Shown here piece by piece: positions 1 through 34,735 of a stretch of DNA of 34,735 nt. The position numbers and the translations under genes are program-made. The DNA is from a virus (lineage: Duplodnaviria; Caudoviricetes), in the IMG/VR virus record IMGVR_UViG_3300011334_000294, positions 1 to 34,735 of that record; one strand, 5' to 3'. Position 1 is the first letter of the stretch. Every line of letters begins with the position of its first letter. Under the pieces are notes generated by a model. That model ran no database searches. It worked only from the letters and a program-made list of their open reading frames with translations, and had not been told where the DNA came from.

Positions 1-237
1 TGCGACGCGCTGGCGGTCAACGTGCCTGCTGGCGTAAAGATACCGCAGGCGGCGCTGCTACACGCGCTTAAAGAGGCTGGCTGGGTTGACATGGGGCGCA
101 TCGCTTGCGTTGACCATCCAACTAAGAAACACATCTTTGCCGCGCCTGACGTGAAGAAACGTAACAAGTCAGACTTGCGCCGCTTGGCGGAAGACTTGCC
201 TAAGTCCAGCATCATGCCGAACATCGGCAAGAATTGA
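1..237 (+). CDS. C-terminal fragment, probably of the primase-helicase that begins at 32981 (5'-truncated)
   Basis: Frame 1 is open from base 1 (CDALAVNVPAGVKIPQAALLHALKEAGWVDMG...IGKN*). Same strand as the 3'-truncated primase-helicase at the window end. Confidence 0.7.
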   Translation, partial: CDALAVNVPAGVKIPQAALLHALKEAGWVDMGRIACVDHPTKKHIFAAPDVKKRNKSDLRRLAEDLPKSSIMPNIGKN

Positions 238-263
238 CAACCATTTGGTTGCAATGATATAGG
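234..263 (+). promoter_or_regulatory. sigma70-type promoter for the putative sRNA
   Basis: Perfect TTGACA at 234-239, then 18 nt, then TATAGG at 258-263. No ORF follows on this strand. Confidence 0.55.
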
Positions 264-330
264 TTCAGGGTTGGCGTTGCTCCGCTGGCCTGATTAAACC
301 CCCGGCGTCCTCACTCCGCCGGGGGTTTTT
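264..330 (+). ncRNA. putative two-hairpin trans-acting antisense sRNA
   Basis: Hairpin 1 at 265-293 (loop TTGCTC; G-U pairs form only on the + strand). Hairpin 2 at 296-328 (12-bp stem, loop TCCTCACTC) followed by a T run. Both loops are complementary to several translation initiation regions. Confidence 0.7.
296..330. terminator. bidirectional intrinsic terminator between convergent operons (also the sRNA 3' hairpin)
   Basis: AAACCCCCGGCG-tcctcactc-CGCCGGGGGTTT followed by TT. Confidence 0.85.
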
Positions 331-3985: not shown

Positions 3986-4050
3986 AGTTTCTCACTCCTA
4001 TTTGGCACTAGCGCCATCCTCGGCGCGGATTGCTCCGCGCTCCGGTGGTG
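3986..4050 (-). promoter_or_regulatory. structured leader carrying both sRNA target motifs
   Basis: GCGCGGA-GCAA-TCCGCGC hairpin, TGGCG-CTAG-TGCCA hairpin, and ATAG-GAGTGAGAAA-CTAT hairpin overlapping the ATG. Confidence 0.6.
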
Positions 4051-4725: not shown

Positions 4726-4752
4726 CGTATTGCTCCTCGCTGTCTTGATACC

Positions 4753-4802: not shown

Positions 4803-5110
4803 AAAAATAGTCATTTGGCCTAAAATGATAGCCTAACTTTTGCCTAACTAATGACTATTTTTGATCCCGCGATTTTGGCGCGAAAATTGTTAGGCAAAAA
4901 GTTAGGCGAAATAGTCATTTGTTAGGCTATGTTTTCACCCTAAATTGCCTAGGAAAAAGTCAAGGGTTTCTGCGTGTCTGCGAGGATTCTAGGCTATTTA
5001 GGCTATGGAATGTATAGTCAGTTTGAGAAAAGTATATAATTAACCTATATGGTTAAAATATAACTTTCTAGCGAACGACTCCCAAATCGATTGCCTAGAT
5101 TGCCTAGATG
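4803..5110. repeat. array of G(C/A)CTA / TAG(G/T)C repeats with nested inverted repeats flanking an AT-rich core; putative replication origin
   Basis: At least 15 copies, many 9-13 bp apart. IRs at 4803-4815/4850-4862 and 4831-4848/4889-4907. AT-rich stretch 5028-5070. Tandem GATTGCCTA at 5089-5106. Confidence 0.75.
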
Positions 5111-5135
5111 TTTAACAATTGTAAACTTTTCCGGT

Positions 5136-5177
5136 CATGACCTACGCAGTCATGGCGCCATGATTTACGCAGTCATG
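5136..5177. repeat. two 19-bp direct repeats CATGA(CC/TT)TACGCAGTCATG
   Basis: At 5136-5154 and 5159-5177; each has CATGA...TCATG dyad ends. Confidence 0.8.
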
Positions 5178-5430
5178 ACATGCAATCGCATAGCCTAGAC
5201 CGCCCATGCAAAATGTTGCACCGCAACACAGCCAAACAACCAATATGTTTTTCTTAATGCGAGCGAGTCGCAATAGGGAAAAGGCCAACCGAAAATCCAG
5301 CCTATAGAACAAAAGCGGAACGCTGCTGGCATGGGGGTGGGGGGTGCAGGGCCGAGCGCCGCGTGACTGTCACGGGCACGGTACGCAAACAATTTTTATT
5401 TTTTTTAAAATCTCACTGCATCAAAGCCTG

Positions 5431-10506: not shown

Positions 10507-10868
10507 TGAGTTGCGCTAATTTTATAGGTACACTGTTTCTTGCGCGCGATGTGGCTCACTCGACGCATCTGAACACGCGCAGCTTCGCCAAACATTCCGC
10601 TTTGAACGAGTTTTACGACGAAGTGATCGAGTTGGCGGATAAATTTGCTGAGGCGTATCAGGGAAAATACGGCCTTATCGGCCCTATTTCGCTCATGTCG
10701 GCTAAGAAGACTAACAACATTGTCGAGTTTCTTGAAGGTCAGGTAGACGAACTTGAGGAAATGCGGTATAAAGTCGTCGATAAGGAGTGTACCCCACTCC
10801 AAAACATTATCGACGAGATTTTTGGGTTGTATTATTCAACCTTATACAAACTAAAATTTTTGGCATAA
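10506..10868 (+). CDS. ferritin/Dps-like four-helix protein
   Basis: H..H......H.AL..FY......D.FAE.YQG and final helix LQNIIDEI...YKL. Confidence 0.7.
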   Translation: MSCANFIGTLFLARDVAHSTHLNTRSFAKHSALNEFYDEVIELADKFAEAYQGKYGLIGPISLMSAKKTNNIVEFLEGQVDELEEMRYKVVDKECTPLQNIIDEIFGLYYSTLYKLKFLA

Positions 10869-28884: not shown

Positions 28885-28980
28885 AAAAGGGGGCTACTAC
28901 AAAATTTTTTGCATTTCAAGGGTTGCATCAAATTTTGTTGTATGTATTATGGCCGTTCAAACAGTAGAGTGAGGTACGAT
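28885..28980. promoter_or_regulatory. divergent promoter region of the replication module
   Basis: Minus strand: TTGAAA-N17-TAGCCC-N6-ATG. Plus strand: TTGCAT-N16-TATTAT at 28923-28950. Confidence 0.5.
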
Positions 28981-30783: not shown

Positions 30784-30845
30784 GGGGTGCGAAAGCCGGA
30801 GCGTGCCACCGCGCTCCGGCGAGTAGCGGAAGAGTGAGAACTTCT
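30784..30845 (+). promoter_or_regulatory. structured leader with an sRNA loop-2 target
   Basis: GCCGGAGCGTG-CCAC-CGCGCTCCGGC stem; GAAG-AGTGAGAA-CTTC hairpin just before the ATG. Confidence 0.55.
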
Positions 30846-31034
30846 ATGATAATAAATAATTACAGACACGTTTCGGCGAAAATGCCGCGTATGGCGGTGT
30901 GTTCGATATGCGACCGCGCCGCGGGCGAAGCAGCAGCACCTAAGTTTACCCGCATTTGCCTTCAGCTATTACACCGCCAGCCATTCATGTGCGACGAATG
31001 TTGGGAGGGTCGCCATGTCCGCTCTTTGGGTTGA
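30846..31034 (+). CDS. small Zn-finger protein, 62 aa
   Basis: CSIC...CDEC; its 3' end carries the polymerase RBS GGGAGG. Confidence 0.6.
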   Translation: MIINNYRHVSAKMPRMAVCSICDRAAGEAAAPKFTRICLQLLHRQPFMCDECWEGRHVRSLG

Positions 31035-32970: not shown

Positions 32971-32980
32971 GGAGCAAGCG

Positions 32981-34735
32981 ATGAGTGAGGATCGCACGAA
33001 ATTCATAGAGTATATAACGGGATTGGCGGCAGATAATGTCGGCGAGACAGCCCTTGTTGTGCGGCAGAAGCCGCAGCACGACAGCGACGGCAACATGATA
33101 TTCCACGCAGACGGCGCGCCGAAGGCGACGTTCCCTGCGTTCCTGCCAGAAAAGACCCGCATGAAAGAAGGCGAGGCATGGTACGTCAACACAGGCTCGT
33201 TCATCGTTGACCGCTTTGTAGACGGCAAGCCGTCGGCCAAGTCGAGCAACGTCGAGTATGTGCTGTTCATGATGCTGGACGACGTCGGCACTAAGTCAAA
33301 AGAACCGCCGCTTGCGCCGACATGGGTATTGGAAACCAGCGAAGGTTCGTTCCAGTGGGGCTACGCGTTCAGCGAACAACCAAAGAAGGGCGACTTCTGC
33401 GCTGCCATCAAGGCCATCGCGGACGCTGGCTACACTGATCCCGGCGCGACTAACGCTGTCCGCAACTGCCGTATTCCCGGCAGCGTCAACCTGAAGCAGG
33501 GGCGCAACAACTTTCCTGCGCGGCTGGTATCGTTCAACCCTGAGCGTGAATACACGCTGGACGAGATATGCAAGGCGCTGGACGTTACGCCAGAGGAGGG
33601 CGACACAGCCGAATATAAAGCGGTGCAGTTGCGCGACACTGGACTAGACAACGTCCTGACATGGCTTGCCGAAAAGAACCTAGTCTTGTCGCACGTCAAC
33701 GCTGACGGCTGGTGCGCCATCGTCTGCCCTAACCATGAGCAACACAGCGACGGCATGATTGAGGCGCGCTACAAGCCGCTCGACCGTTCGTTCTGCTGCT
33801 ACCATGGGCATTGCCAAGACTTAGACAGTCGCACCTTTCTTGATTGGGTAGCCAATGAAGGCGGCCCGAAGGTAACGCCGGGCTTGCGTGATGAACTAAT
33901 CGCTGAACGTCTGGCGTCGATGTATGAGAAAATCTCACCAACCGAAGCGTTCCCCGATGAGGCCGCAGCGCGTGTGCGTGAGGTCGAAAAGAAAGAGGCG
34001 GGACGGCTGGAACAAAGCGAGTGGTTCGAGCGTTTCGCGTATATCCAGTCCGATGACTGCTATTTCGACATGGTGACGCGTCAAGAGATAGCACGTAACG
34101 TCTTCAACGCCCTGTTCCGTCACGTTGACTGCCGCTCCATCCACAAAAAGACGCAGCGCGTGCAGTCGTCCATCTATTTTGACGAGCGCCGTCAGGATCG
34201 CGGTGCGCCTGCGCTGGCTGCCGTGACGTTCGCCGCTGGCGATGATACCTTGGTGACGCGCGACGGGTTGGTTTACGGCAACCGCTGGGTGGATGGCCGC
34301 CCTGACGTGTCGGACAGCGACACAATCGCCGATTATGACGTAGAGCCGTGGCTTCAGCACTGCCGCGACTTGATAGCGGATGATAAGGAGTTAGACCATA
34401 TCCTCGACGCTATGGCGTTCAAGATACAGCATCCGAACGTCAAGATTAACCATGCCATCCTGATTGGCGGCGATGAAGGCGTTGGTAAGGACAGTATGTT
34501 CCAGCCGTTCCTTTGGGCGCTGGGCGGTCAGCACTGGCGCAATCGGTCAGTCATTGAGGCTGGCGGGTTGGACAGCCAGTGGGGCTATGCGCTTGAGGCT
34601 GAAGTTGTCATCCTGAACGAGTTGAAGGAACAAGAGGCGCGCGAACGCCGCGCTATGGCTAACAAGTTGAAGCCGCTGATTGCTGCGCCACCTGAAACGC
34701 TGACAGGCAACCGCAAGGGGATGCACCCATACGAG
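32981..34735 (+). CDS. primase-helicase (RepB-like primase, Zn domain, SF3-like NTPase); 3'-truncated
   Basis: Missing from the ORF track because it has no stop in the window. MLDD, ETSEGSFQWGY, RIPGS.N, CPNHEQH..CYHGHC, Walker A GDEGVGKD, Walker B VILNE. Confidence 0.9.
   Translation, partial: MSEDRTKFIEYITGLAADNVGETALVVRQKPQHDSDGNMIFHADGAPKATFPAFLPEKTRMKEGEAWYVNTGSFIVDRFVDGKPSAKSSNVEYVLFMMLDDVGTKSKEPPLAPTWVLETSEGSFQWGYAFSEQPKKGDFCAAIKAIADAGYTDPGATNAVRNCRIPGSVNLKQGRNNFPARLVSFNPEREYTLDEICKALDVTPEEGDTAEYKAVQLRDTGLDNVLTWLAEKNLVLSHVNADGWCAIVCPNHEQHSDGMIEARYKPLDRSFCCYHGHCQDLDSRTFLDWVANEGGPKVTPGLRDELIAERLASMYEKISPTEAFPDEAAARVREVEKKEAGRLEQSEWFERFAYIQSDDCYFDMVTRQEIARNVFNALFRHVDCRSIHKKTQRVQSSIYFDERRQDRGAPALAAVTFAAGDDTLVTRDGLVYGNRWVDGRPDVSDSDTIADYDVEPWLQHCRDLIADDKELDHILDAMAFKIQHPNVKINHAILIGGDEGVGKDSMFQPFLWALGGQHWRNRSVIEAGGLDSQWGYALEAEVVILNELKEQEARERRAMANKLKPLIAAPPETLTGNRKGMHPYE

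Follow-up and report, generated by a model that had tools for sequence, protein, structure and literature searches.

A predicted two-hairpin RNA behind the primase gene of P22-like podophages that may act on the primase start by loop-loop pairing

The window, that is the whole stretch of 34,735 nt analysed here, is a near-complete record (linear, 93% complete) of a P22-like podophage. It contains terminase, portal, capsid and ejection genes as well as a replication block with a helicase, a DUF2800 exonuclease, an SSB-like protein, a family A polymerase and a primase-helicase. The latter comprises 781 aa in relatives and is split here: since the window was cut inside this gene, its ends do not join directly and about 118 primase codons are absent between positions 34735 and 1. 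Profile searches of the primase-helicase returned DUF5906 above the cut-off, with RepB_primase (E 1.3e-4) and a VapE-like domain below it. Gene order in relatives places a predicted small RNA (sRNA) directly behind the primase stop. The features around the primase are as follows.

32971 to 32977, plus strand: primase ribosome-binding site (RBS) GGAGCAA, matching sRNA loop 1 by complementarity; not kept in every relative
32978 to 32995, plus strand: primase start hairpin, 5-bp stem and 8-nt loop GAGUGAGG; putative core target of sRNA loop 2
32981 to 34735, plus strand: 5' part of the primase-helicase gene, start ATG at 32981
1 to 237, plus strand: 3' part of the split primase-helicase gene, last 78 codons and stop
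234 to 263, plus strand: predicted sigma70-type promoter of the sRNA (TTGACA, 18 nt, TATAGG, upstream TG), overlapping the primase stop
268 to 291, plus strand: sRNA hairpin 1 with the loop (U)UGCUC(C), the complement of ribosome-binding sites of the form GGAGCAA
296 to 333, plus strand: sRNA hairpin 2, intrinsic-terminator-like, 12-bp stem, loop UCCUCACUC (308-316), U tail

Seven genome contigs matched the phage, none of them with a prophage-like copy. We name no host, because all seven are metagenome-bin contigs whose assigned taxa are unrelated to one another. Searches of five complete relatives for an integrase, a resolvase, ParA or an HTH_3 repressor found none in 5/5, which is still compatible with a carrier state. 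Early and late blocks are separated by a non-coding gap in which 13 GCCTA repeats are spread over both strands (4818-5300). These repeats are also dense in L048, L394 and L400, and likewise in outgroups that lack the sRNA; other relatives carry different repeats in the same gap. We regard the array as a candidate replication origin.

The 18-nt primase start reads GCG-ATG-AGT-GAG-GAT-CGC. GCGAT (32978-32982) pairs with ATCGC (32991-32995) around the loop GAGTGAGG (32983-32990), the stem holding the AU of the AUG and the loop comprising its G, codons 2-3 and the first base of codon 4. A preliminary description of this DNA had proposed the same arrangement, with GGAGCAA followed by a 5-bp stem that buries part of the AUG, and it was confirmed at 32971-32995 with a pair probability of 0.95-1.0 (20-100 nt flanks). 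The stem probability exceeded 0.5 in 59/71 relatives, and equally good folding arose in 6 of 1000 flank shuffles; z-scores for the minimum free energy of the whole region were non-significant (0.01 and -0.56). Conservation was followed through 271 full-length primase loci, which reduced to 194 unique genes and 119 representatives with less than 95% aa identity to each other; 79 representatives with at least 66% identity to L002 entered the codon counts. The identical 18-mer was present in 71 of these 79, down to about 69% protein identity, and in 121/131 unique genes. Codons 2-4 were each represented by a single codon (76/76, 77/77 and 74/74 rows), so that these three of the first five codons, which the earlier description had singled out, were free of synonymous change in those rows. 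Codon 5 was CGC in 76/78 rows; for codons 6-16 the top codon reached shares of only 0.34-0.71, and a share of 0.97 was attained in only 8 of 440 comparable primase columns. The early codons of the exonuclease, SSB and polymerase genes are mostly variable, with isolated invariant codons. Most primase start variants retain the stem, including a GUG start with a G-U pair (L303) and an MSESR start with a U-G pair (L044); L281 and L367 encode MSEAR and have a bulged stem.

The element behind the primase stop (~268-333; folding z -3.9) ends in a U run and is likely an RNA of ~65 nt with two hairpins and its own predicted promoter. Among 33 hand-picked two-hairpin members, two-sided changes were seen at 13 of the 16 stem pairs and the loops were constant. 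The promoter pattern was kept in 37/37 near representatives, and a loose pattern built from these same data picked up a -10-like box within the final codons of the primase in all 42 distant representatives. A consensus promoter scan of the window did not list the sRNA promoter among its predictions. The RNA had previously been assigned to the primase 3' UTR on a circular map; its place directly behind the stop holds in relatives, but the conserved promoter argues that it is not merely a 3' UTR. The sRNA was single-copy in each of five records searched. No Rfam family reached its gathering score in the window and six relatives, and an NsiR1 match (E 0.11) was dismissed as mere terminator likeness. 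A promoter-pattern scan recovered the near clade and unrelated promoters and yielded no new loop alleles; the RNA model gave only weak, terminator-like matches in outgroup loci (at most 28.6 bits), mostly on the opposite strand.

Several variations on this element were observed. The spacer of the sRNA promoter (234-263) contains palindromes, such as CAACCA-TT-TGGTTG and CTGATATCAG, and GCAACA-type palindromes also lie beside early and exonuclease promoters. Their variation as alleles among close relatives suggests an operator at the sRNA promoter. L037, L051, L056, L060 and L073 carry 89-nt sRNA alleles in which the first hairpin is extended or duplicated, with two GCUC-like motifs. In L206-L280 a conserved C-terminal KVV motif of the primase coincides with the predicted -10 box, and this peptide may thus be conserved for DNA reasons. 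Behind the primase stop of the outgroups L351, L355, L359, L385 and L389 the terminator loop is also conserved but of another sequence (GUGUUCCGAUC-like), possibly marking an analogous RNA with another address.

The correspondence between loop 2 and the primase start was assessed in the 116 representatives that were long enough (L339, L281 and L348 were too short). The loop core was the exact complement of the primase site in 74 of the 76 clade members, two had neither and none was discordant; among the outgroup rows, one has a mis-called start and four hold a loop-like 6-mer at some point of a 150-nt stretch. In L352-354 the loop changed from CUCACUC to CUCAAUC, and both the primase and the polymerase-leader sites changed from GAGUGAG to GAUUGAG. 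The primase stem was rebuilt there as GAUGAU/AUCGUC with a G-C to A-U change, and a pattern scan for this loop allele found 0 viral stretches. A second coupled change, foretold as the same exchange from an unrelated MIEDR protein, combines loop CCUCAAUC with primase site GAUUGAGG in L633/L634, whose primase shares 67% aa identity with that of L352. Strongly supported branches force two changes on the tree, either as independent gains or as a gain followed by a reversal, and the coupled changes turn the N-terminal peptide MSEDR into MIEDR. Furthermore, L244 and L302, both nested inside the clade, have lost loop 2 jointly with the primase, polymerase and exonuclease sites. The target of L361 is shifted into the primase RBS and its loop reads CCUCACUUCCC, an 11-bp match; L282 shows a loop change that preserves a G-U pair with the target. 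The preliminary proposal of loop-loop recognition at the primase start is thus well supported by the synonymous freezing, the two coupled changes and the joint loss.

Unmatched changes were found as well. L303 has the polymerase site AGCGAGG, L297 and L320 carry a CCUCACC loop with a mismatch at its edge, the exonuclease site of L352 did not follow its loop change, and L633/L634 are without polymerase and exonuclease sites. We thus take the primase to be the core target and the polymerase, exonuclease and early-gene sites to be optional. A separate observation concerns L244/L302, where the loop of hairpin 1 reads UUUCCCC and the primase RBS GGGGAAA, with similar matches in L286, L296 and L303; primase control has possibly been handed over to loop 1 in L244/L302.

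The motif GAGTGAG occurs six times in the window (2.96 expected; 5 of 100 shuffles reach six): in the sRNA loop, at four sense-strand gene starts, and once antisense to a late gene (minus 10555-10561). The preliminary description had counted four sites, which holds for the sense strand; the sRNA loop and the antisense copy are additional. The count by itself is near chance, and it is the placement at gene starts that matters. A coincidence between Shine-Dalgarno-like purine motifs and C-rich terminator loops, combined with a constrained peptide MSEDR, would be in keeping with this count, with GAGG and GGAG being Shine-Dalgarno (SD) cores and with the conservation of MSEDR at the protein level. 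Such a coincidence leaves the freezing of four codons against synonymous change unexplained, as it does the joint loss in L244/L302 and the two coupled changes, both of which turn the peptide into MIEDR; we consider it largely refuted and extremely improbable. The sites outside the primase are listed below.

30829 to 30844, plus strand: polymerase-leader hairpin with the SD sequence (GAGUGAG) in its loop; stem 30829-30832/30841-30844
28967 to 28974, plus strand: exonuclease (DUF2800) RBS GAGUGAGG, unstructured, optional loop-2 site
3991 to 3998, minus strand: early-gene (DUF7249) RBS GGAGUGAG, loop-2 site, largely unstructured
4730 to 4736, minus strand; also 2057-2063 and 835-841: early-gene RBS GGAGCAA, loop-1 site by sequence match

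All four sense-strand sites had been described as hairpin loops, and the different stems around them as a sign of selected structure. Both statements apply to part of the set. The polymerase-leader hairpin precedes an inserted 62-codon ORF (ATG 30846) in the window and lies directly before the DNA polymerase in most relatives, and its site was found in 50/52 loci (49 by pattern, plus L237). Its stem has a probability of ~0.4 in the window (50-100 nt flanks, 37 C), or 0.01 with 20 nt flanks. Across 21 haplotypes the stem arms paired better with their own partners than with swapped ones (-5.1 versus -2.6 kcal/mol; permutation p 0.0002, relatedness ignored). In an alignment of 20 rows, four near-clade rows of which stand one register off, 80% of cells pair, compared with 38-41% in registers slid by one or two. 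In distant members the hairpin is strong: 19/29 have at least 3 expected pairs, as against 5/21 in the near clade, where it is weak. The GTA/TAC stem at the exonuclease has a probability of at most 0.01 in the window; its site is present in 30 of 47 loci and absent in 17, with a mean of -0.03 kcal/mol, and in 19 haplotypes own arms were no better than swapped ones (p 0.83, relatedness ignored). For the ATAG/CTAT stem of the early gene the probability in the window is at most 0.15, and 54 haplotypes averaged -0.92 kcal/mol against -0.45 when shuffled, nine of them at -2 or better. Covarying arms thus speak for structure at the polymerase leader, and the exonuclease and early-gene stems are left without such support. 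Kissing geometry would accordingly be confined to the primase and the polymerase leader; at the exonuclease and early-gene sites contact would be loop to single strand. When opening costs are included, the primase ranks first of 49 starts for loop-2 pairing (-12.4 kcal/mol versus a median of -2.4, as nearest-neighbour duplex values in which kissing is not represented).

Further observations were made at these starts. The early-gene starts at minus 3719 and 3489 share the RBS GGAGAGGAC, which can pair with loop 2 and its flanks across a two-base bulge and places them third and fifth of 49. Inserted genes seem to capture regulated starts: the polymerase-leader hairpin is followed by the 62-codon ORF (30846-31034), and in L552 and L281 (2137) the primase start sequence opens foreign ORFs. 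Another hairpin (30788-30826; flanks GCGAAAGC and GCGAGUAGC) follows the SSB stop and precedes the polymerase leader; we take it to resemble a loop-E/bulged-G motif. It persists in L244/L302, L633/L634 and several outgroups without the sRNA and is possibly a protein-binding translational operator. CsrA/RsmA-type proteins bind GGA loops; their involvement at the sRNA target sites was rejected because the polymerase loops are without GGA.

The covariation demands that the sequences match; it does not by itself tell RNA from DNA as the molecule involved, nor repression from activation. The motif could be read by a protein, with the primase binding GAGTGAG-loop hairpins in single-stranded DNA, and perhaps in its own mRNA as an autogenous repressor, through a weak RepB'-like domain, and with the sites changing along with the protein. 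The sub-threshold RepB_primase match would fit, as would the two hairpin sites on opposite strands, ssiA and ssiB of RSF1010, on which RepB' initiates according to the accessible part of PMC8567376. The geometry is compatible, with the primase start on one strand and the terminator on the other. L633/L634 keep only the two sites flanking the primase, and the target side has a single AGCGAGG variant (L303). On the other hand, all sense sites lie where translation of various genes begins, on one strand or the other, and that of L361 moved into the RBS. The terminator stem shows G-U on the RNA strand in eight cells against one C-A, which speaks against folding of the opposite strand but which terminator function alone would also explain. 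There is, moreover, a separate origin candidate in the GCCTA array, and L244/L302 live without either hairpin. Protein recognition of the motif is in our judgement distinctly unlikely.

Turning to loop 1, both target sites are indeed present at the primase in the window, as the preliminary description had stated. GGAGCA stands at the primase RBS in only 43 of 64 representatives with a GCUCC/GCUCU loop 1 and in 13/42 distant ones, which makes an obligatory two-loop grip on the primase doubtful. The primase sites follow the same 5'-3' order as the sRNA loops and are 5 nt apart, so that simultaneous binding of both loops would be awkward. With opening costs included, the primase ranks second of 49 starts for loop-1 pairing. 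Among 295 GGAG-type leftward early starts from 45 loci with GCUCC/GCUCU, the two commonest forms, GGAGCA (94) and GGAGTG (60), match the two loops; in outgroups GGAGCA accounts for 5/139 such starts. Ten loci with another loop 1 still show GGAGCA at 8 of 24 GGAG-type early RBSs. Loop-1 pairing is less secure, as this frequency equals that found with the matching loop (94/295). No RBS to match the loop-1 allele ACCCCAAACC could be found. Either loop site was present at 13/69 early versus 1/141 late starts of five complete relatives (Fisher, relatedness ignored); G006 was dropped from this count since zoning failed, and start calling is crude. For GGAGCA among GGAG starts alone, with G006 included, p was 0.07.

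We consider it probable that the sRNA acts in trans as an OxyS-like kissing RNA and represses initiation of the primase and, optionally, of the polymerase, exonuclease and early genes. The host polymerase would produce the ~65-nt transcript from its own predicted promoter, and the terminator loop CCUCACUC would kiss the primase-start loop GAGUGAGG over 7-9 bp. The kiss would cover +3 to +11 of the primase frame and thereby block ribosome loading. In several distant members strand exchange could extend the contact to 12-13 bp; 13 contiguous pairs are possible in 10 distant representatives, in which the duplex could dislodge the 3' stem arm at the primase start. Loop 2 could also reach the polymerase-leader hairpin as well as SD sites without structure at the exonuclease gene and at some of the early genes, and loop 1 likely the GGAGCAA RBSs of early genes and, optionally, of the primase. 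As genome copies and RNA build up during infection, replication and early proteins would be turned down and late genes, which are without sites, spared. Repression is the likely direction of control, because the RNA would cover positions +3 to +11 of the primase frame and the SD sequence itself in the polymerase leader; the accessible part of PMC9486967 describes a five-codon window at the gene start as the place where sRNAs repress.

Alternatively, the pairing may be real but act in cis or as an activator: the terminator loop would fold back to the primase start 2.36 kb upstream, or docking would open the hairpin and so promote initiation or stabilise the message. Hairpin 2 doubles as the terminator of the replication operon, the primase is the only target retained in every lineage having the loop, and displacement of the stem arm by the 13-bp duplex would also suit activation. 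We nevertheless hold this to be rather unlikely, given the separate promoter of the near clade and the -10-like box, by the loose pattern, of the distant members, the sites on oppositely transcribed early genes, and the position of an RNA bound at +3 to +15 within the five-codon repression window (PMC9486967, accessible part).

The preliminary description had likened the circuit to plasmid copy-number feedback. Gene-dosage feedback is possible, but the 7-9 nt trans match and the five relatives without integrase, resolvase, ParA or HTH_3 do not favour the plasmid-like form. In its full version, the phage would persist as an episome and the RNA, through the same contact, would serve as a constitutive, unstable dosage sensor that limits the initiator. 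The promoter looks constitutive, the sRNA is single-copy in the five records and the primase is the core target. Weighed against the missing carriage genes, the seven metagenome-bin matches without a prophage-like copy and the additional targeting of early genes, this remains unlikely. A trans-acting repressor of primase initiation is the reading we prefer. That it serves a lytic phage family as an RNA-only replisome feedback, loop 1 shutting early genes and loop 2 kissing the primase and polymerase hairpins, is a more tentative proposal, possible but somewhat doubtful. If it is correct, the alleles CUCACUC and CUCAAUC would form orthogonal specificity groups and could act on co-infecting relatives. 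The natural genetics are clean (frozen codons, two coupled changes, joint loss), and a one-base allele-swap test is therefore feasible without culturing the phage. Terminator loops behind the replication operons of uncultured phages may be overlooked regulators.

Plasmid antisense RNAs such as CopA/CopT and RNAI/RNAII are cis-encoded, fully complementary to one target, and limit replication by loop kissing. Here too, loop kissing would limit a replication function and dosage feedback is conceivable; unlike those RNAs, the sRNA lies on the same strand as the primase, behind the gene, is encoded 2.36 kb away from its target site, matches over 7-9 nt (up to 13) and has several putative targets. 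Literature searches returned no account of this RNA or of a phage sRNA kissing its own primase start. The searchable part of the PMC10690425 supplement gave no match, and the RNA may still be among the candidate structured RNAs of that paper. In the accessible part of PMC12197685, phage sRNAs are for the most part regulators of lysogeny, cis-antisense RNAs or regulators of host genes; the sRNA described here points instead at the primase and polymerase of its own phage. Lambda PreS/LPR1 and VP882 VpdS are phage sRNAs that influence phage replication by base pairing (bioRxiv 2024.10.31.621285; PMC12197685). PreS, unlike the sRNA, acts on host dnaN and enhances translation (bioRxiv 2024.10.31.621285), and VpdS works via Hfq on host and phage mRNAs (PMC12197685); these accounts, in their accessible parts, describe no kissing of the phage's own primase start. 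The cuckoo RNAs of alphaproteobacteria share adjacent hairpins (there 2-4) with conserved C-rich loops and variable stems, but carry CCUCCUCCC in every loop, unlike UUGCUC(C) and UCCUCACUC, which match phage-specific sites (PMC4615179, accessible part).

The closest parallels are OxyS-fhlA and C4. In the window the OxyS covariance model gave no match even at E values as high as 5, and in six relatives none at gathering score, and the C4 model of Rfam matched neither the window nor these relatives, the sRNA consensus having two hairpins and not a three-stem fold. In the accessible part of PMC10578473, OxyS of E. coli is a trans-encoded RNA with stem-loops at both ends that forms short loop-loop pairings at the RBS and early coding sequence of fhlA. 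The sRNA resembles it in a terminal stem-loop whose seed can pair with a loop around the start of the target (primase, 74/76; polymerase leader), and would, like OxyS, repress initiation. OxyS is a 110-nt host stress RNA assisted by Hfq, in which the 5' loop pairs with the downstream site and the 3' loop with the RBS (PMC10578473). The predicted 65-nt RNA is instead phage-encoded and would be directed at replication and early genes of the phage itself, with two sites that are adjacent and in the opposite order. C4 of P1/P7 is also phage-encoded; it targets an mRNA of the same phage in trans by means of two short loops, one of which pairs at an RBS, and small loop changes switch its specificity (PMC5320573, accessible part). 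Unlike the sRNA, which has two hairpins, its own predicted promoter and terminator, and the primase and polymerase as putative targets, C4 has three stem-loops, is processed by RNase P and serves immunity and lysogeny (PMC5320573). By analogy, the sRNA would work like OxyS-fhlA and P1/P7 C4, being a member of neither, nor of the cuckoo or cis-encoded plasmid antisense RNAs.
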